This document shows, piece after piece, positions 1-14,222 of a stretch of DNA of 53,977 nt. The notes below the pieces were generated by a model. It was given only the letters and a program-made list of their open reading frames with translations, did not search any database and was not told the origin of the DNA. The stretch is from an uncultured virus (IMG/VR IMGVR_UViG_3300017783_000004) (Duplodnaviria > Heunggongvirae > Uroviricota > Caudoviricetes). The DNA lies in IMG/VR virus record IMGVR_UViG_3300017783_000004. The stretch is one strand, 5' to 3'. The position numbers and the translations under genes are program-made. Position 1 is the stretch's first letter. Each line of letters opens with the position of its first letter.

Positions 1-1350
1 CGAAGGCGTTCTATGTTGATAAGTGAAAGGATTTCTTCCACTAAATGGGTTTCTAGCAGAGTTTGGTTGTCTTGCCTGATAAGTGAACGGTTGTCTTGCA
101 CTAAATGGTTGTCTAGCACTATTCGGTTGTCTTGCCTGATATGTACTAGGTGACCTGTGATTATATGAACTAGGCGACCTATGGTCGTATGTAAATGGTT
201 GTCTTGCACTAAATGGGTTTCTAGCAGCGTTAGGTTGTCTTGCCTGATATGTACTAGGTGACCTATGTTGATATGTACTAGGCGACCTATGGTCATATGT
301 ATATGGTGACCTGTGATTATATGTAGTAGGTGACCTATGGTTGTAAGTAAACGGATTACGATATGTAAACGGTGACCTATGGTCATAGGTAAATGGTGAC
401 CTATGTTGATAAGTAAACGGACTTCTATAAGGCGACCTATGGTCATATGTACCAGGTTGTCTATTGTTGTAAGTACTAGGATTCTGGTAAATACTTGGCG
501 ACTGATGCTGATAACTACTAGGTTGTCTGTTCTGATAGGTACTCGGATTCTGGTAAATACTTGGCGACTGATGCTGATAAGTACTAGGTTGTCTGTTCTG
601 ATAGGTACTTGGATTCTGATAGATACTCGGTGACTGATGTTGATAAGTCAACGGACTTCTATGCTGATAAGTGAACGGACTTCTATAAGGCGACCTATGG
701 TCATATGTCAACGGACTTCTATGGTCATATGTAAACGGACTTCTATAAGGTGACCTATGGTCATATGTTAAAGGAGACCTGTGATTATAAGTAAACGGAT
801 TACGATATGTAAACGGTGACCTATGGTCATATGTAAATGGTGACCTATGTTGATAGATGAACGGACTTCTATAAGGAGACCTATGGTCATATGTATTAGG
901 TTGTCTATTACTATATGTAGAAGGTGACCTATGGTCATATGTAAATGGTGACCTATGTTGATATGTCAACGGACTTCTATGTTGATATGTCAACGGACTT
1001 CTATGATTATATGTAGAAGGATCCTGATATGTTCTAGGGTCTCTATATGTAGAAGGTGACCTATGTTGATATGTGCCAGGTTGTCTAGCATTTCTAATAT
1101 TAGGTTCTTGTTGTGACCTAATATTTGGTTCTTGTTGATTTCTAATATTAGGTTCTTGTGCATTTACTGGATTTTGATAAATCGCAGGTTGTCTTCTATC
1201 TCTAATATTAGGTTCTTGTGCATTAGCAATATAAGGATAAGGATTCTGTTTGTTTCTTATATTAGGTTCTTGTGCATTAGCAATATAAGGATAAGGATTC
1301 TGTCTGTTTCTTATATTGGGTTCTTGTGCGTTTGCGATATAAGGATAAGG
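1..1350 (-). repeat. Coding tandem repeats: mostly 24-bp (8 aa) units with 12/18-bp variants; higher-order 66-bp x3 (~480-650) and 54-bp x3 (~1200-1350)
   Basis: attctg block recurs at 481, 547 and 613; attaggttct recurs at 1207 and 1261; ggtgacctatg recurs many times. Confidence 0.9.
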
Positions 1351-1512
1351 TTGTTGAACACTCTGTTGTCCAGAAGCATTATTCCAACCGGTAGGCGTCT
1401 TTACATAAATCTGGTCTGCAGCTTTCCATGTGCCTGAGTCTGTTTTTACCCATGCACCTCGGGTTGCATTCCAACCGGTTGGTGTTTTTACCTTTTGTGA
1501 GCCTGTCGCCAT
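1..1512 (-). CDS. Pro-punctuated repeat fibre-associated protein (partial; runs off the window edge)
   Basis: Not in the ORF track because there is no stop in the window. Manual translation from ATG at 1512: MATGSQKVKTPTGWNATRGAWVKTDSGTWKAADQIYVKTPTGW, then NAQEPNIR-type and xTYQHRSP-type repeats in frame to base 1. Late-promoter-like AATAAATA upstream. Confidence 0.85.
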   Translation of the reverse strand, partial: MATGSQKVKTPTGWNATRGAWVKTDSGTWKAADQIYVKTPTGWNNASGQQSVQQPYPYIANAQEPNIRNRQNPYPYIANAQEPNIRNKQNPYPYIANAQEPNIRDRRQPAIYQNPVNAQEPNIRNQQEPNIRSQQEPNIRNARQPGTYQHRSPSTYRDPRTYQDPSTYNHRSPLTYQHRSPLTYQHRSPFTYDHRSPSTYSNRQPNTYDHRSPYRSPFIYQHRSPFTYDHRSPFTYRNPFTYNHRSPLTYDHRSPYRSPFTYDHRSPLTYDHRSPYRSPFTYQHRSPLTYQHQSPSIYQNPSTYQNRQPSTYQHQSPSIYQNPSTYQNRQPSSYQHQSPSIYQNPSTYNNRQPGTYDHRSPYRSPFTYQHRSPFTYDHRSPFTYRNPFTYNHRSPTTYNHRSPYTYDHRSPSTYQHRSPSTYQARQPNAARNPFSARQPFTYDHRSPSSYNHRSPSTYQARQPNSARQPFSARQPFTYQARQPNSARNPFSGRNPFTYQHRTPS

Positions 1513-6707: not shown

Positions 6708-8342
6708 TTAAAATGTTCCACCGTCAATAGCAGTAATGGTAACTGCACCACTTGATACTGTAAAGTTAGCACTAGCAAAACTAGCGATACCTTTATTAGA
6801 TGTCGTTGCATCTTCTCCAGTAATGGTTGCTGTACCACCTGAGTACGCTACATCCATACCTTCGCCAGCAGCGACAATTACAGAACCTAAGTTAGAAGCA
6901 GTTGATACTTCAGCAGCAATCGTAATTGCACCTGCACCATTAGTGATATCAATACCATCACCAGCAGTAAGAGTAGCAGCATCCATTAAACCTGAAGATG
7001 TGTCACCAATTAAGATTTGACCATCTGTAGGAGCTGAACCTGCATAACTGTCAATACTTCCACTCATACTTGCGTTAGCAAGAGTTAAGTTTCCGAATTT
7101 ACCTGCCATAGCAGTTCCAGAGAATACTGAAGAACTATCTGTTGCACTTGTTAGAGCGACAAAAGAACCATCTGTATCATCCATACCAAAGAAACCAATT
7201 TTAGCACCACCGGAGTTGTACTTAAATTTAATACCTCTGTCTAGGTTATCGTCTGAACTATCTGAACCAATTTCGAATACAGGGTCAGCGATATTTACTG
7301 TTGTTGAGTTTACTGTTGTTGTAGTACCATTAACTGCCAAGTTTCCTGTGACTGTTAAGTTACCAGATGTTGTTAAAGTTGCAGTTGTAATATCGTCTGA
7401 TATTAAGTTTCCTGAAACTGTTAAGTTATTTGCGACTGTCACATTGTTTGGAAGACCAACTGTTAAAGTTTGTCCTGACATTGATGTTTCAATCTCGTTT
7501 GCTGTACCAGCGATTGTTAGTGACTGAGAGTCTAAGTCTACTGCACCTGTTCCACTGTCACCAGCCATATCTAAGTCTGAAGCGGTTACACTACTGTCTA
7601 CATATGCTTTTACTGATTGTTGAGAAGGAACTTTAACTGCTGAGTTAGAAGCCATGTTGTCTTCGTCTACAAAGAAGTTAATCTTATCTAATGTCACATT
7701 ACTATCTAAGATAGCTGCAGTATCTACTGCATCATCTGCTAATTTAGCAGCGTTGATAGCGTTGTTTGCGATTGTCATAACACCTGTGTCGGCCATAGTG
7801 GCGTCACCAGACATTACATTGTCAATCCATTTTGATGTTCCTGTATCATATAATAACATCGCACCATCACCTGCGGATGTGATGTTTACATCACTACCAC
7901 CAGCAAGGGTTGAAGTTGTTGAAGCGAAAGAAAGATTTCCTGAACCATCTGTTGCTATAACTTGGTTAGCAGAACCGTCTGCGGTAGGCAGCGTGAAGGT
8001 TACTGAAGAACCAAGAGTATCTGCAGCTTTAAGACCAACGAAGTTTGTTCCGTTATCGGAATCTTCCATGATTTGTAAAGTTGCACCAGCAGTAGAACCA
8101 TTACCAACTTTAAAGTTAGCAGGTGTTGCTGAAGAACCAGCAAGCATATCAGTATAATACTTACCACCAATCGCATGGATTAGGGCTGTAGAATTATCTG
8201 AATCTACTGATTCGATGAATAGTTTAGCAGATGCACCAGAATTACTTCTATCTTGTACATACGCCAATTCACCTTCCGATAAATCTGATATCGCCGGAGC
8301 AGATGCGCCTGTACTTCTTTTGATTTGAATTACTGTTGCCAT
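6708..8342 (-). CDS. Tail fibre-like protein (544 aa)
   Basis: N-terminal IQIKRS..L.EGELA; DEDNMASNS..QQSVKAYVD; GNLTVTGNL; ends IDGGTF. Confidence 0.75.
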   Translation of the reverse strand: MATVIQIKRSTGASAPAISDLSEGELAYVQDRSNSGASAKLFIESVDSDNSTALIHAIGGKYYTDMLAGSSATPANFKVGNGSTAGATLQIMEDSDNGTNFVGLKAADTLGSSVTFTLPTADGSANQVIATDGSGNLSFASTTSTLAGGSDVNITSAGDGAMLLYDTGTSKWIDNVMSGDATMADTGVMTIANNAINAAKLADDAVDTAAILDSNVTLDKINFFVDEDNMASNSAVKVPSQQSVKAYVDSSVTASDLDMAGDSGTGAVDLDSQSLTIAGTANEIETSMSGQTLTVGLPNNVTVANNLTVSGNLISDDITTATLTTSGNLTVTGNLAVNGTTTTVNSTTVNIADPVFEIGSDSSDDNLDRGIKFKYNSGGAKIGFFGMDDTDGSFVALTSATDSSSVFSGTAMAGKFGNLTLANASMSGSIDSYAGSAPTDGQILIGDTSSGLMDAATLTAGDGIDITNGAGAITIAAEVSTASNLGSVIVAAGEGMDVAYSGGTATITGEDATTSNKGIASFASANFTVSSGAVTITAIDGGTF

Positions 8343-8484: not shown

Positions 8485-8727
8485 TTAGAATGTTCCGCCG
8501 TCTATCGTAGTGGTGGTTGTCCACTTATCAGTTGACTGGTCATATGAGAGAAGACCATCATCTGTTTCAGATGCGTTTACATCTGCAAGTTCATTGATAG
8601 ATTTAGCAGATAAGTCTGTTGCACCGCCTGGGTTACCAACAGTCACTTGTTTTGCTCTTAGATTTGTTGTGTTAGATAATACGCCACCTATGGTAGCGAC
8701 TCTTGATACTACGCCTTTTATTGCCAT
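8485..8727 (-). CDS. Small fibre-associated protein (80 aa)
   Basis: LADVN..DGLL.YD...KW fibre repeat; ends IDGGTF. Confidence 0.7.
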   Translation of the reverse strand: MAIKGVVSRVATIGGVLSNTTNLRAKQVTVGNPGGATDLSAKSINELADVNASETDDGLLSYDQSTDKWTTTTTIDGGTF

Positions 8728-9059
8728 TATCTGGTTACTCCTGGTGTGACTATTGCTTGACCTTCTACAACTCTTGTTGTTATACCACCAGCACTTGTTA
8801 TGTTCATATCATACACATATCTTCCAGGTTCTAATGCTGATGTTTGAGTATCAGTCAAAGATAATGTCACTTTACCGGTAACATTCTCATTACTGGTAGT
8901 GAATGTGGCAGATATGGTTGAAGAACCATAGGTCTTTCTTATTTGTCCTGCTGATGTATAACCAGAGAGATTTAAAACCTGTCCTGTTGAATCGGAAACA
9001 TCTACAGCAACTTGAAAGTCTGTTCCCTGGTCGATAAATAAATTTGCGATTATAGCCAT
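8727..9059 (-). CDS. Conserved phage structural/adaptor protein, Ig-like (110 aa)
   Basis: NLFIDQGTDF..GRYVYD..TRVVEG..VTPGVT pattern typical of marine T4-like fibre regions. Confidence 0.7.
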   Translation of the reverse strand: MAIIANLFIDQGTDFQVAVDVSDSTGQVLNLSGYTSAGQIRKTYGSSTISATFTTSNENVTGKVTLSLTDTQTSALEPGRYVYDMNITSAGGITTRVVEGQAIVTPGVTR

Positions 9060-9076: not shown

Positions 9077-10171
9077 CTATTCGTCAAACGGCAAAGCAGG
9101 TACCTGATGAATTTTCTCAACTGTTGAACTATCTTTCTTAACAAAGACTTTAGTTGAAGCTTTTACAACACCATCACTATCTTTTATAAAGACTCCTTTC
9201 ACTTTTGCAACTGGCGTTATTGGTCGATTAGAGTTCTCTGTTGCTTGAAATATAAACGGAGACCTGAATCCATATGGTTGTTGTCTGTTTTGTTGAAAAC
9301 TATAAGACGCCTGACCTTGTGCAATATATGGTTGTCGACCAATAGTAGGATTTCTGTAAATAGAAGGACTTCTATATGAGAAAGGATATGTAAATGGTTG
9401 CCTTCTAATAACAGGGTCTTGTCTATTGTGAGTATTAAGATATTGTGCGTTATGTGCTGAAGGTGTTCTCTTATTTCTAATATTAGGTTCTTGTTGACTT
9501 CTAATATTAGGTTGTTGTTTATTTTTAAGCGCTTGTCTAATAGAAGGTGTTTGTGCGCTTCTAATATTAGGTTCTTGTTGACTCGCTGGTGTTCTTGTTA
9601 TAGAAGGAGTTTGTTTACTCGCTTGATAAGCAGACTGTTTGTTTCTTATAACAGATTCCTGTTTATTTTTAATAGTAGGTTGTTGTTGATTTCTAATAAA
9701 AGGATTCTGCGTATTCGCTTGTGCATCTGCGGTGTAAGGACTTTGAGCGCTTCTAATATTAGGTTCTTGAGCAGTCTGTTGGGCGCTTCTTATACTAGGC
9801 GCCTGTTTGTCTCTAATAACAGGTTCTTGTGCGTTTGCAGTATACGGAGTTTGATGAGCTCTTTCAACCGGATTTTGTCTGTCTCTAATATTAGGTTCTT
9901 GTTGATTTCTAATATTAGGTTGTTGATTACTTTCCTGCTGATTTCTTTCAAACGGATGTTGTTTGTTTCTAATATTAGGTTGTTGATTACTTTCCTGCTG
10001 ATTTCTTTCAAACGGATGTTGTTTGTTTCTAATAACAGGTTGCTGTGCCTGATGCTGTCGATTTCTTTCAAACGGATGTTGTTTGTTTCTAATAACAGGT
10101 TGTTGCGCTGGTTGTTGCACCTGTGTAGCAATAGGATGTTGGTATATGGATGGTTGTTGTCCTACTGGCAT
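9077..10171 (-). CDS. Gln/Arg-rich Pro-punctuated repeat protein (NIRNQQEP type, 364 aa); 'chain B'
   Basis: 8/6/4-aa units; 20-aa x3 block; C-terminal KVKGVFIKD..VFVK motif; SD CAGGAG upstream. Confidence 0.8.
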   Translation of the reverse strand: MPVGQQPSIYQHPIATQVQQPAQQPVIRNKQHPFERNRQHQAQQPVIRNKQHPFERNQQESNQQPNIRNKQHPFERNQQESNQQPNIRNQQEPNIRDRQNPVERAHQTPYTANAQEPVIRDKQAPSIRSAQQTAQEPNIRSAQSPYTADAQANTQNPFIRNQQQPTIKNKQESVIRNKQSAYQASKQTPSITRTPASQQEPNIRSAQTPSIRQALKNKQQPNIRSQQEPNIRNKRTPSAHNAQYLNTHNRQDPVIRRQPFTYPFSYRSPSIYRNPTIGRQPYIAQGQASYSFQQNRQQPYGFRSPFIFQATENSNRPITPVAKVKGVFIKDSDGVVKASTKVFVKKDSSTVEKIHQVPALPFDE

Positions 10172-10177
10172 ATCACA

Positions 10178-11779
10178 TTACTCCTGGTTATTATCATCGT
10201 TTTCATCGTCTTCTGGTGCTTCGTTTTCGTAATACAGAGTCACTTTTAGCGATATTGTATGAGTTCCCATATTAGCATCTGGACTTGTAAATGTAAATGT
10301 ATTAGTTGTCTCGTACTCCTTAACATCTCCACCGCTAGCATTATCACATTTCCACTTGGTAAAAGTACCATTAGTTGTACCAAAACTCCAAGAAGTGCTA
10401 GTTATTGCAGTGCCTGTAGAAATGTTTCCGCTCAGAGTACCCTCATTGAAGGTACCATGAGTAGAGGTACTTCTAGCAACAGAATAATTAGTTCCAGCAT
10501 CGTCTATTTTGTATAGAAGAATAGCACTATTTGCATTAATGCTTTGCTGCTGACCATTTTGAGTACCGCCGGTATTTGTTTCTTCCAGATATGCATCAGC
10601 ATTCTGTCCAGGTGGTATACCATCAGATGAAGCATAAACATATACATTAACATCATTACTTGATTCAACACAATATAATACAATCCAAGGTTCTAGACCG
10701 CTATGGTCCACAACTGAAACCTCACAATGAACTTCAGTATATGGAGCAGTCGTAGTACCAATGTTTTGCGGTTGTAATTCACTAAAGATAAACGGTGTTC
10801 GTGCATTTCTTGAGTTTTGTGTATTAACAATTATTGGAGTTGTAAATGGTGACCTATGTTGGTAAATACTCGGCGATTGATGCTGATAAATTGACGGACT
10901 TCTAAATGGTGAACTATGCTGATAAGTACTTGGCGATTGATGCTGATAAATTGACGGACTTCTAAATGGCGACTGATGCTGATAAGTACTTGGCGATTGA
11001 TGCTGATAAATTGACGGACTTCTAAATGGTGACCTATGCTGATAAATCAACGGACTTCTATGGTCATAAGTGTCTGGACTTCTATGTTGATAGATACTAG
11101 GTTCTCTATTATCGTATGTAGAAGGTGACCTATGGTCATAGGTAAATGGTGACCTATGTTGATAAGTAAACGGACTTCTATAAGGCGACCTATGGTCATA
11201 TATTAAAGGTTCTCTATTTTGATATGTAGAAGGTGTTCGAGAAGGACTTTGGTGGTTATATGTTGAAGGACTTCTGTGGTCATATGTAAAAGGACTTCTA
11301 TGTTCATATGTTAAAGGTTGTCTATTTGTATAGATGCTAGGCGTTCTAGTCTGAGTCGGTGTACGATATATCAAAGGACTTCTATGTTGATATGTAGAAG
11401 GTTCTCTATGTTGATAATTTAACTGATAAGTAAACGGTGACCTATGTTGATATGTCAACGGACTTCCATGTTGATATGTAGAAGGTGTTTGAATATTGTA
11501 TATTGAAGGCGCCCTACTTGTGTATATAGCAGGCGACCTGTGATTATAGGTTTTTTGTGCGACACCTTGAGCAATTATTGGATTTTGTGCATTACTAGGC
11601 GTCTGAACATTTGTAGGTGTTCTACTTTGATATGTAAATGGTTGTGTTCCTTGAGTAGTAACCTGATAAATTCTTTGTGCGATATTCGGTTGTTGACCGG
11701 CTGCAGGTACTCTGGCTAAAAAGGGTTGCTGAAAAGTTCCACCATTCTTATCATGTTTTATAAAAATATCGTCTGACAT
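10178..11779 (-). CDS. Tyr/His-rich Pro-punctuated repeat protein (xTYQHRSP type) with ~200-aa C-terminal globular domain (533 aa); 'chain A'
   Basis: 8/6/4-aa units over residues 19-329; 20-aa x3 block; non-repetitive beta-rich C-terminus. Confidence 0.8.
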   Translation of the reverse strand: MSDDIFIKHDKNGGTFQQPFLARVPAAGQQPNIAQRIYQVTTQGTQPFTYQSRTPTNVQTPSNAQNPIIAQGVAQKTYNHRSPAIYTSRAPSIYNIQTPSTYQHGSPLTYQHRSPFTYQLNYQHREPSTYQHRSPLIYRTPTQTRTPSIYTNRQPLTYEHRSPFTYDHRSPSTYNHQSPSRTPSTYQNREPLIYDHRSPYRSPFTYQHRSPFTYDHRSPSTYDNREPSIYQHRSPDTYDHRSPLIYQHRSPFRSPSIYQHQSPSTYQHQSPFRSPSIYQHQSPSTYQHSSPFRSPSIYQHQSPSIYQHRSPFTTPIIVNTQNSRNARTPFIFSELQPQNIGTTTAPYTEVHCEVSVVDHSGLEPWIVLYCVESSNDVNVYVYASSDGIPPGQNADAYLEETNTGGTQNGQQQSINANSAILLYKIDDAGTNYSVARSTSTHGTFNEGTLSGNISTGTAITSTSWSFGTTNGTFTKWKCDNASGGDVKEYETTNTFTFTSPDANMGTHTISLKVTLYYENEAPEDDENDDNNQE

Positions 11780-11789
11780 ATTTTGTTCA

Positions 11790-14222
11790 CTATATTAAAA
11801 AGAAAAGATGACCTATCTCTTTTCCACTACCACTAGGAAGACCACTAGATAAATCTGAGTCTGTTATCACACTATAATCTAACTCTATGTCGTTACCATC
11901 TAGAGTGATACCATTACTCACTGAAGCTTCTAATGTTATCTCACCATCTGTAGTTGTATTAGTACCACCGTCTGGATTATCATTGTAGGTGAGTTTTATA
12001 CCTTTATTTAGTTCAACATTTGCAGTACCATTTTGAGCTATTGTTCCATCACCACTTGCATCGAACTTAAATTGTTTAGCGACTCTGTTGTCTGTAAAGA
12101 ACACAGCAGAAGCGTCTTCAGTTAAATTACTAGTACTACCAGCTTGGTCACCAGGGTTCCAAGCAGAACCACTCCATATTAGTATTTGACCAGTACTTGC
12201 ACCACTATTGACATTTGCTAAATCTTCTAAGTCGATTGATGGTAAGTCTGATAGAGTTAAAGCAGTAAGAGTAGTTGCAATAGATACATTACCCTTTGCA
12301 GTCTGAGTCTGGGTACCAGTGACTGCACCTGTTAATGTGAAAGTTGAATTTGCAATTGTTAAATCTATTGCACCATCAGCGTCATCGTCATTGTAAGTTG
12401 CTGTAAGACCTGTATGTGTACCATTGGCTGCAATCTGAGCACCAGTAATGTCTTGTACTTTCTCGGTGAGTGTGACATTTGACCATGAAGAACCAGTTTG
12501 AACTAAAATTTGGTCATTAGTATTGTTTGCATCTGAAACATCGTATAAGTCATTTAGAGCAAGTTCGGTAGAAGTAATATCTCCTTTAGTCAAAGCTCTA
12601 AGAGTAGTTGCAATTGTCAAATTACCTTTTGCAGTCTGAGTAGCAGTACCTGTGACTCCACCTGTTAATGTGAAAGTTGAATTGTCTACTACTAGATTTG
12701 TTTTGCCTGTATCATCGTTGTATGTGACTGATAGACCTGTTTCAGTATTACCAGCGAACATTGCACCAGCGATATCTTCAACTCTTTCTCGCATGGGTGT
12801 GTTTTCCCATTGGTCTGTGGTATCATTATACAGTAAAACATGGTCTTCTGCAAGCGCAATAGGATGGTCTACATTTGCAAGATAATCTATATTCTTTAAT
12901 GCGATTCTAGCGTCTGCTCTTCCATCTGTATAATATAGATTAGAATTATGTTCTGTTAAGTTTTGTGTTGTGTGGTTTGCAATACTTGAAACTGTACCAG
13001 TCAAAGAACCTGCGTTTGCATTACTGTCGTGGTCAGATGTTGTATCTAGTATTGTGTGAGTACCAGCAAAGTTTTTAATGTTATTAACTACAGAACTACC
13101 TGATTTGAATACTGAGTTAGTATCACCTGTTATATCATCGACACTTGTAATGTCGCCACCAGTGATACTCAATGTACCATCTGTTAGAGTTCCTACTGTT
13201 GCAGTTCCTGATACATTTGATAAGTTTGAATATACATTTGACCATCTCTTTGATGTTAAACCCAATGAATATGTATTAGTTGTTTCTGGTCTTAGATGAG
13301 AGTTTGCATAACCTGTGAATGTAATTGTATCACTAGCGGCGTTACCTAATGTTGTGTTTCCGTCTACTGTAAGGTTTGCATTTAAGGTTGTATTATCAAC
13401 TACTTGAAGTGTTGATTGCATATGCACATCACCATCAATGTCTACAGCATCTAAATGAGATGTACCATTTACATCGATGTTGCCTTCGATATCTAAGAAT
13501 CCTGAGAATGTTCCGTTGACTGCGCCTGTTATAGAACCACTGTTGATACTCATTGTAGAATCAGTGATAGTAGGTGCAGTTAGTGTCTTGCCTGTTGTGA
13601 GTAAGATATCATCTTCTGCAAATGTCTTACCTGCAAGTTGTATTGTATATCCAGATTCTAGTAGAGTTGTTGGTGATGAACTATCTCCATTTATAATAAC
13701 ACCGTTTGCATTGGTGTTATAGATTGTGTTCTCAACTGTTTTCTGGAAGAATGATGCAACTGAGTTTGCAATATTTGTTCCTACAAATGCACCAGTGTAT
13801 GAGTATACATGAAGTCTATCGTTAGTAGACATTGCATTTGCTTGACCAGATGCATAAGTACCTGTTAGTGTGATACCCTCATGCGAACCTGTACCAGTAG
13901 GATTAGAAATAATGAAATCTACATCTTCTATCAAATGTCTTTCGTTTTTAAATACTTGAATCTTATCTTTTACAAAAATTAAGTTATTTGCAAACTCATC
14001 GTTACCTGTAAATAGTGTTTGGTTTGTTGATGCAACGAATACGAACTCTTGGAAGAAAAACTGTTTGTCTTCTAAAACATTGACAGCATCAACTAGTGTT
14101 CCGTTGTTTCCAGATTTTAATCCTTCTCTTAGACCAGAAACTTCACCCACATCATATGCGAGTTCGTTATAGGTAGTTCTAAAGTCTTCAATTGTTGCGA
14201 AGTTGTCTACTGTTTTAGCCAT
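11790..14222 (-). CDS. Tail fibre-like protein (810 aa)
   Basis: TIEDFRTTYN N-terminal attachment-like motif; internal duplications (STFTLTGxVTGTxTQTAKGN x2); modules shared with the 884-aa fibre. Confidence 0.75.
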   Translation of the reverse strand: MAKTVDNFATIEDFRTTYNELAYDVGEVSGLREGLKSGNNGTLVDAVNVLEDKQFFFQEFVFVASTNQTLFTGNDEFANNLIFVKDKIQVFKNERHLIEDVDFIISNPTGTGSHEGITLTGTYASGQANAMSTNDRLHVYSYTGAFVGTNIANSVASFFQKTVENTIYNTNANGVIINGDSSSPTTLLESGYTIQLAGKTFAEDDILLTTGKTLTAPTITDSTMSINSGSITGAVNGTFSGFLDIEGNIDVNGTSHLDAVDIDGDVHMQSTLQVVDNTTLNANLTVDGNTTLGNAASDTITFTGYANSHLRPETTNTYSLGLTSKRWSNVYSNLSNVSGTATVGTLTDGTLSITGGDITSVDDITGDTNSVFKSGSSVVNNIKNFAGTHTILDTTSDHDSNANAGSLTGTVSSIANHTTQNLTEHNSNLYYTDGRADARIALKNIDYLANVDHPIALAEDHVLLYNDTTDQWENTPMRERVEDIAGAMFAGNTETGLSVTYNDDTGKTNLVVDNSTFTLTGGVTGTATQTAKGNLTIATTLRALTKGDITSTELALNDLYDVSDANNTNDQILVQTGSSWSNVTLTEKVQDITGAQIAANGTHTGLTATYNDDDADGAIDLTIANSTFTLTGAVTGTQTQTAKGNVSIATTLTALTLSDLPSIDLEDLANVNSGASTGQILIWSGSAWNPGDQAGSTSNLTEDASAVFFTDNRVAKQFKFDASGDGTIAQNGTANVELNKGIKLTYNDNPDGGTNTTTDGEITLEASVSNGITLDGNDIELDYSVITDSDLSSGLPSGSGKEIGHLFFLI

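Follow-up and report, generated by a model that had tools for sequence, protein, structure and literature searches.

Mirror-image repeat arms encoded by two adjacent genes of an uncultured marine T4-like myophage: a probable antiparallel two-chain fibre

The window analysed here is a 53,977-nt stretch of DNA from an uncultured virus (IMG/VR record IMGVR_UViG_3300017783_000004). It contains two adjacent genes, designated A and B, whose products carry long proline-rich repeat tracts, and the locus raises the question of why the proline spacing of one tract, read backwards, matches that of the other. Judging from the sequences of the two chains and their relatives, A and B are probably the separated arms of a hairpin-shaped fibre protein, zipped antiparallel into an extended beta-type duplex. 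Antiparallel pairing of the two chains was proposed in an earlier note on this DNA, and it is supported by the proline mirror, a code of two unit types, residue covariation, the parity of the prolines, a proline-free scoring matrix and the existence of single-chain forms. The two genes, both on the minus strand, have the following parts.

10178–11779, minus strand: gene A, an open reading frame (ORF) of 533 aa; first chain, with an N-terminal segment (MSDDIFIKHD) putatively at the base, a repeat arm and a C-terminal domain
10793–11725, minus strand: arm of A, residues 19–329; 41 prolines of a single parity, mostly Y-type units (xTYQHRSP); GQQP start at P31 and RTPFIF end at P329
10829–11068, minus strand: 60-nt tandem copies in A, at about residues 238–317; 20-aa period made of 8 + 8 + 4 units; copies 88% and 79% identical
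10181–10792, minus strand: C-terminal domain of A, residues 330–533 (about 204 aa); non-repeat, predicted all-beta with low confidence, putative tip domain
10169–10185, minus strand: A/B junction; AGGAG at 10181–10185 within the end of A, stop codon TAA at 10178–10180, TGTGAT, and the ATG of B
9077–10171, minus strand: gene B, an ORF of 364 aa; second chain, with a repeat arm and a C-terminal beta-strand-like motif putatively at the base
9221–10153, minus strand: arm of B, residues 7–317; 35 prolines of a single parity, mostly N-type units (NIRxxQEP); GQQP start at P7 and RSPFIF end at P305
9935–10114, minus strand: three 60-nt tandem copies in B, residues 20–79; 20-aa period made of 8 + 12 units; copies 82% and 88% identical
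9080–9220, minus strand: C-terminal part of B, residues 318–364 (AKVKGVFIKD...KVFVKKD...EKIHQVP); putative base element together with the N-terminus of A

The proline mirror of A and B

The earlier note had placed the tract of A between P19 and P329 and that of B between P7 and P317, each spanning 310 aa, and both spans were confirmed on the translated ORFs. Its list of the A proline gaps in reverse order is exact. The unit lengths that it gave for B hold at the level of coincidences but not as a purely proline-delimited list, because several of the '8,4' borders carry no proline; counted from P7, the B gaps are 6,8,4,8,12,8,12,8,12,8,8,8,8,8,12,8,12,8,24,6,6,8,12,8,8,16,6,4,6,6,6,18,6,12. When residue i of A is set opposite residue j of B with i+j=336, 31 of the 35 tract prolines of B coincide with prolines of A, the number counted by hand before, and the other four (residues 13, 259, 263 and 299) lie opposite no A proline. 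The runner-up mirror register (K=328) gives 22 coincidences and the best parallel register 21. Parallel registers fell far below the mirror register in proline counts, in gapped alignment and with the proline-free matrix described below, in keeping with the antiparallel orientation that had been claimed.

Shuffled gaps do not reproduce this match. Shuffling the gaps of B alone gave 15.3±1.7 coincidences with a maximum of 24, and shuffling both chains gave 15.1±1.6 with a maximum of 22; none of 20,000 trials reached 31 in either case, so the hand-counted register withstood a comparison with gap shuffles. Shuffling in blocks of three gaps gave a maximum of 26 (0/10,000 reaching 31), whereas blocks of five gaps reached 31 once in 10,000 trials and blocks of eight gaps 92 times in 10,000. 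The latter rate is about the chance of five blocks returning to their original order.

The ends and the expansions of the tracts obey the same register. The GQQP starts face the R[ST]PFIF ends of the other chain, with P31 of A opposite P305 of B and P7 of B opposite P329 of A. By arithmetic under i+j=336, the tandem copies of B face residues 257–316 of A, and the presence of 60-nt tandem copies at mirror positions in both genes suggests that expansions were matched in both arms.

All of the tract prolines examined in 10 chains of five lineages (437/437) share one parity; the proline gaps in the arms are all even, with unit lengths of 4–16 and no glycine periodicity. A single parity of all arm prolines implies a period of two, that of a beta-strand, and we read the prolines as always occupying one class of strand position. 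They would form non-hydrogen-bonded facing pairs and would also block edge-to-edge association. Blocking of edge association in this manner is an idea from the literature on negative design of beta sheets.

Facing units and their covariation

The arms are built from two kinds of unit, namely Y-type units such as FTYQHRSP, FTYRNP and FTYARQGQTP, and N-type units such as NIRxxQEP, VNAQEP and YPYIAxxQEP; the consensus units of eight residues are FTYQHRSP and NIRNAQQP. In the mirror alignments, every FTYQHRSP-like stretch lies opposite NIRxxQEP-like units of the other chain. Both chains are mosaics of Y-type and N-type units in several lineages. All 13 eight-residue units of the window pair consist of a Y unit facing an N-type unit, and 49 of 50 units are heterotypic in the pair of locus L014. 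For a wider count, 49 pairs were pooled (39 distinct), of which the 24 with at least 17 coincidences were used and the other 15 dropped. Among the distinct 8-mer pairs of these 24, 185 of 196 set a Y unit against a non-Y unit, 11 have a Y unit on neither side, and none is Y/Y. Heterotypic pairs make up 69 of 82 for the 6-mers and 61 of 64 for the 10-mers, again with no Y/Y pair in either class.

The facing units also covary in their residues. Mutual information over 176 distinct 8-mer pairs stands out at six position pairs, Y1-N5, Y1-N7, Y5-N1, Y5-N3, Y7-N1 and Y7-N3 (z 16–26), whereas all other position pairs have z of at most 7, including the equally variable Y4 and N4. The residues involved compensate each other in size: H5/S7 occurs with N1/R3 (76 cases) or T1/K3 (11 cases), N-or-A5/Q7 with Y1/A3 (21 cases), F1 with Ala or Gly at N5, and L1 with Q5/E7. 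The covarying positions run anti-diagonally and are confined to one parity, as would be expected if they faced each other across the strands of an antiparallel beta-ladder, on one of its faces. T2 and R6 of the Y units and I2 and Q6 of the N units form a nearly invariant face. When the partner was slid by one to three unit pairs, mutual information dropped from 0.73–1.04 to 0.22–0.59, and the share of units obeying the rule from 142/146 to 82–86%. The covariation is mainly specific to the facing unit, above a real background of regional similarity.

A log-odds matrix of facing residues was built from five lineages and used in gapped local alignment. In this test 30 of 33 distinct pairs, seven of the 33 being from the window's own lineage and within the training set, scored 60–323 mirrored versus 13–20 forward (z 5.5–17.9 against unit shuffles). 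For a non-circular test, the matrix was retrained on the four other lineages, which are 33–37% identical in B, and its proline terms were set to zero. On the window pair this proline-free matrix gave +64 at register 336, −38 at the next register and −48 at the best parallel one, and shuffled partners had best scores of −37±10 with a maximum of 3.

These results bear on the kind of contact between the arms. The two chains could pair antiparallel in a non-beta form, either packed in some other extended manner, for example as polyproline-II-like strands, or loosely associated and partly disordered, which we consider unlikely. The composition would suit such a form, with about 11–13% proline and high Gln, Asn, Ser and Thr in the arms, and AlphaFold2 gave no confident structure, although low confidence shows nothing either way. 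A proline-rich arm that pairs in a non-beta way is also seen in the antigen I/II stalk, in the part of its description drawn on here (PMC3178794). However, the even gaps and the one parity of all tract prolines correspond to a period of two and not to the period of three of polyproline II, the covariation joins same-parity positions only, and the placing of invariant Tyr, Thr and Ile on alternate positions suits strands.

Still less probable is that A and B make no contact and owe the mirror either to running along a third component in opposite directions or to the exchange of a single DNA cassette that reaches from the end of A through the tip domain into the start of B. The tip-proximal arm ends are indeed contiguous in the DNA, so that one recombination could swap matched parts, and the slid-partner controls retain some covariation. 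Nevertheless, the covariation is 2–3 times stronger for facing than for neighbouring units and is limited to six position pairs with size compensation, and the code holds whichever chain bears the Y unit. The base-proximal ends, which are distant in the DNA, mirror equally well, and a third partner would also need to co-vary. Direct antiparallel pairing of A and B in a beta form is our preferred reading.

Relatives, probable hairpin topology and the A/B junction

Scans of viral contigs found 19 loci with A and 9 loci with B, from which 10 pairs representing distinct lineages were picked by hand. The earlier note had made its reading depend on homologous pairs keeping matched tracts, and they do so while the arm lengths vary: eight of the 10 pairs have z of 8.9–12.5 with spans of 310, 320, 324 and 380 aa and 30–51 proline coincidences, and the two weak ones, L018 and L019, have 14/32 and z of about 3.8. 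An anchor search with the conserved 110-aa gene downstream of B led to 80 loci, comprising 39 with an adjacent pair of proline-rich ORFs, 21 with one long proline-rich ORF and 20 with neither. Among the last 20, 10 have no proline-rich ORF and 10 have short, non-adjacent or lone ones, and several end at a contig edge. One of them, L040, has an A chain marginally below the proline threshold, and its mirror gives 27/39 coincidences versus 12.4±2.2 in the null. Ungapped proline counting gave z of at least 5 in 16 of the 39 adjacent pairs and z of 3–5 in another 8. Arm lengths measured separately for each chain correlate (r=0.81 for 32 length-distinct pairs, arm length being taken as the longest same-parity proline run, a crude measure, and the rows being related).

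The single-chain relatives indicate how the two chains are arranged. The matrix test found two self-mirroring arms of 120–190 aa in 12 of 16 distinct single chains, with a non-repeat central insert of 130–170 aa between them; the ungapped proline mirror is weak in nine of the 16. These forms bear the N-terminal motif of A and the C-terminal motif of B. Since both arms surround a central domain in the single-chain forms, A and B correspond to a split hairpin, and the window pair looks like the same hairpin cut after the tip domain. The two elements that the earlier note had assigned to the ends of the fibre are both present, namely the KVKGVFIK motif at residues 323–330 of B and the C-terminal part of A, about 204 aa long (residues 330–533). 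The C-terminal part of B is the most conserved portion of the B alignment and is also C-terminal in the single-chain forms. On the split-hairpin topology, the N-terminus of A and the C-terminal motif of B would lie at the base, and the C-terminal domain of A would lie at the tip.

The C-terminal domain of A is an orphan, with three matches among 1.84 billion representatives. In L007, residues 1–332 of A are 90% identical, and the C-terminal domain is replaced by an unrelated one. Among the proteins P0001–P0120, six or more unrelated C-terminal domains are found on the same MSDDIFIK... N-terminus and arm, including Hint-like ends (...FANGMLVHN) and ...HKNYAIKTKHNNFYADG... ends. This variety suggests that the tip domain is exchanged as a module, and exchange among close relatives fits a position at the tip. 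We regard the C-terminal domain of A as a candidate receptor-binding domain.

A and B lie in the same frame, with one TAA and two codons (TAA TGT GAT) between them, and an AGGAG stands nine bases before the ATG of B. Short in-frame spacers are also present in L018 and L014, but the layout is not conserved: A and B are in different frames in L007, overlap by stop and start in L009 and L010, and in L050 are likewise in a different frame or overlapping. The in-frame junction may be a trace of fission or fusion between the two-chain and single-chain forms. Synthesis of A and B as one chain of 900 residues by read-through of the TAA would agree with the common frame, with the short spacer and with the existence of single-chain relatives, but it is very improbable. 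B has its own AGGAG and ATG, and the different frames or overlaps in four relatives mean that the layout is not a family feature; read-through was rejected as an explanation on this ground, and the pairing topology would be identical either way.

The earlier note had stated that the DNA is not an inverted repeat, which holds: merely five short inverted pairs were found (15–20 nt, 74–88%). The best diagonal of A against the reverse complement of B reaches 33.8% over 999 nt and does not lie at the mirror offset, and the best direct A/B diagonal is higher, at 36.4% (background 27.5±2.7%). A 252-aa antisense ORF (9491–10249, plus strand) runs across B and reads SNIR... repeats. It is explained by the PNIR core of the N units being encoded by the nearly palindromic CCTAATATTAGR, and is most likely a by-product of the codon pattern and not a gene. 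Apart from accounting for this ORF through the near-palindrome, the idea that the mirror is a relic of an inverted duplication in another frame, or of RNA pairing, without protein-level meaning, is scarcely credible and was rejected as largely refuted, given that the reverse-complement diagonal is below the direct one and at the wrong offset, that the N units read antisense give SNIRFLLI and not Y units, and that the recent tandem copies (79–88%) would erase an ancient relic and yet sit at mirror positions.

Several observations weigh against pairing of A and B as a beta-type duplex. Slid partners retain mutual information with z up to 9.6, part of the signal being regional or by descent, and as the sequences are related these z-scores are not probabilities. 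The 10-mer covariation replicates partly, its top signals (1-9, 7-1 and 1-7) being near the anti-diagonal, and the 6-mer signal is diffuse. Ungapped proline counting leaves 15 of the 39 adjacent pairs below z 3, and L077, L099 and L108 have no mirror signal even with gapped matrix alignment. The latter three have the usual family termini with different arm units (GNTRGTT, RYPFTYPF, PSIVQQPSIG), and their code may be another one or absent altogether. The single chains L085, L090, L097 and L103 (4/16) fail the matrix test. Both arms are strongly basic, with net charges of +20 for A and +25 for B, excluding 20 His in A and 8 in B. Their charges do not complement each other, so that pairing would have to overcome some repulsion, and the paired fibre would be highly cationic.

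The tip domain of A also counts among these points, having no recognisable fold or family by sequence, protein atlas and AlphaFold2 attempts. In the protein atlas search its best score of 0.80 was reached by shuffled proteins one third of the time, and AlphaFold2 gave a mean predicted local distance difference test (pLDDT) of 40.7 for the C-terminal 220 residues of A with a 3-row alignment. The natural single-chain form of L017 gave a mean pLDDT of 31.6 with a 17-row alignment, and both values are too low for the models to be used. Complex prediction of A residues 1–110 with B residues 226–364 scored 0.01 versus a mark of 0.32, with partner pLDDT below 50 and without controls, a result that speaks neither for nor against binding.

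Taken with the evidence above, the split-hairpin duplex would be assembled as follows. Each arm would consist of about 300 residues, divided into short units of 4 to 16 residues, always an even number, that end in proline. Each Y-type unit would be matched by an equally long N-type unit of the partner chain, read in reverse order, with residue i of A opposite residue 336-i of B as the chains zip antiparallel. One face of the duplex would carry the co-varying, size-compensating pairs (H5/S7 with N1/R3, N-or-A5/Q7 with Y1/A3, F1 with a small residue at N5), and the other the nearly invariant T2 and R6 against I2 and Q6. Because unit lengths and types follow one another irregularly, one register would be far better than any slipped one. 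The N-terminus of A and the C-terminal beta-strand motif of B would close the base, and the variable C-terminal domain of A and the N-terminus of B would form the tip. In the paired state the arms would adopt a beta-ribbon conformation, and by arithmetic the fibre would be about 100 nm long if fully extended. We also lean, by a small measure, towards a more far-reaching view, in which the fibre would be a protein analogue of base pairing: the two kinds of unit would pair only heterotypically and at equal length, setting the register of the roughly 100-nm beta-duplex, and the order of units in one chain would, on that same slight preference, specify the sequence of its partner in reverse.

Genomic setting, known systems and significance

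Family scans of the window proteins assigned the window to the baseplate and tail-fibre region of a T4-like myophage genome, with homologues of gp48, gp53, gp5, gp25, gp6 and gp8 together with a 2328-aa DUF4815 (VrlC-like) protein. The gp6 homologue is 36–40% identical to those of Melnitz, a phage of OM43, and of the Pelagibacter myophages Mosig and HTVC008M. The VrlC-like gene is followed by an 810-aa fibre-like gene, then by A, B and a 110-aa gene, so that A and B sit among baseplate genes and fibre-like neighbours, which places them in a phage tail-fibre module by context only. In pelagimyophages, the genome part downstream of VrlC is a hypervariable host-recognition cluster according to the part of their description covered here (PMC7029224), and that part does not mention repeat proteins of the A/B type. 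A and B belong to the host-recognition cluster of an uncultured marine T4-like myophage. Further features of the region are listed below.

11790–14222, minus strand: 810-aa fibre-like protein ending in ...GHLFFLI, upstream of A and conserved there in relatives
8727–9059, minus strand: 110-aa gene immediately downstream of B; phrog_1084 and phrog_3304 ('L-shaped tail fiber protein assembly')
1–1512, minus strand: first chain of a second mirror pair (MATGSQKVKTP...), truncated by the window edge

The 810-aa protein had no family match in Pfam/PHROG-type scans. The 110-aa gene adjoins the pair or the single-chain form downstream in every related locus seen, with 140 relatives in viral contigs, and it is also present in phage Melnitz, where the A/B pair is missing. 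Its product may be an assembly factor or an adaptor. Farther on, a 544-aa fibre-like protein (6708–8342, minus strand) and an 80-aa protein (8485–8727, minus strand) both end in ...IDGGTF, and Melnitz gp184 ends in ...LNGGTF. The two window proteins and Melnitz gp184 have this kind of C-terminal motif in common.

Over 504 aa the truncated chain at the window edge is 100% identical to A2, which begins a second pair in the near-identical record G001 (L114, G001:C1:16000-21800). In that pair A2 has 700 aa and B2 488 aa, with a mirror over 464 aa that includes 56 of the 59 B2 prolines. At its C-terminal end A2 carries a poly-Gly linker together with a Hint/intein-like domain (Hint, E 2e-4; Intein_splicing, E 2e-7, with 31.3 bits against a cut-off of 35.8 and so sub-threshold), which suggests self-processing at the tip of the second-pair fibre.

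No Pfam or PHROG family was found for A or B, the only hit being a sub-threshold match to Bflower_3 (E 0.005, 17 bits, cut-off 34). No PDB chain matched A, B or the profiles A1 and A2 from the family alignments at E<=1. Functional names were absent among 241 database relatives of A and 154 of B, and ten NCBI-sourced relative clusters that were checked are all metagenomic. In tblastn searches of 50,697 phage records, A and B found no match, though the low-complexity filter may hide relatives, and the single-chain form gave one marginal match to a hypothetical protein of a mycobacteriophage (E 7e-4). None of the named or cultured phages checked carries the pair, including Melnitz-1; at the DNA level the region matched Melnitz-1 and one marine single-cell virus record, and these only through 120 nt of the downstream gene. 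The author of the earlier note knew of no phage appendage built in this way, and no description of one was found in open-access full text. Measured against the open-access literature, Pfam, PHROG and PDB, the pairing code and the proposed two-chain fibre architecture are without a found description.

Some known systems share single features with A and B. The C-terminal domain of T4 gp5 is a triple-stranded beta-helix with octapeptide VxGxxxxx repeats, formed by a parallel homotrimer. It resembles A and B in having an eight-residue repeat in a structural protein of a T4-like phage, but A and B have no VxGxxxxx motif, and nothing in a parallel homotrimer would call for a mirror between two different chains. 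The long arms of SMC, Rad50 and MukB fold back antiparallel, with irregularities mirrored between the arms and the register kept. They differ from A and B in consisting of alpha-helical heptads on one chain, in having another function and in lacking a two-type unit code. Collagen-like or polyproline-II fibres have a period of three (G-X-Y), unlike the even, glycine-aperiodic spacing of A and B.

The stalk of the antigen I/II proteins (SpaP, SspB, AspA), in the part of the account used here (PMC3178794), is formed by two repeat regions of opposite type that pair into a long stalk projecting a variable head. The likeness lies in two unlike repeat regions, a long stalk and a variable head away from the anchor. 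However, the antigen I/II stalk pairs an Ala-rich alpha-helix with a Pro-rich polyproline helix on one chain of a bacterial adhesin. A and B have no Ala-rich arm (alanine is 3% of the A arm and 7% of the B arm), each chain contains units of both types, and the prolines of both arms lie at even-numbered spacings with a period of two.

A further comparison from T4 is the gp37 needle. Its D10 region is made of residues 811–881 and 1010–1026, and the protein is a trimer with seven iron atoms held by histidines, as given in the part of the structural report covered here (PMC6957217). Like the proposed A/B fibre, the needle (D10-D11) belongs to a T4-like fibre, is His-rich and beta, and sends the chain out to a receptor-binding tip and back with the segments side by side. 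It differs in being a homotrimer of one chain with an out-and-back part of tens of residues, whereas the A and B arms are about 300 residues long, lie on two proteins and are punctuated by prolines in a two-type unit code; single-chain relatives put both arms on one protein. A one-chain out-and-back course is seen in 12 of the 16 single-chain relatives and not in the window, which has two chains. The histidines of the gp37 needle lie in H-x-H motifs, and those of the arms (20 in A, 8 in B) mostly in Y-x-H-R, one histidine being conserved in the Y units. Neither sequence nor profile searches linked A and B to a PDB chain, and no fibre family was found for them. A two-type unit code on two chains is present in none of the gp37 needle, the antigen I/II stalk and the SMC-type arms.

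If the reading of A and B as a zipped hairpin is true, the pair would represent a fibre architecture beyond the coiled coil, collagen, triple beta-helix, triple beta-spiral and gp37 needle, in which a simple, readable two-letter unit code would govern which chains pair and would keep them in register over hundreds of residues. It would provide a natural rule set for long, slip-proof and heterospecific beta pairing, rules that designers have so far had to invent, and the code could be borrowed for programmable protein fibres and heterodimers. For the phages themselves, it would mean that they lengthen, shorten and re-tip the fibre by matched changes in both arms, and it would account for the fibre-length variation and tip swaps in the host-recognition cluster of abundant marine myophages.

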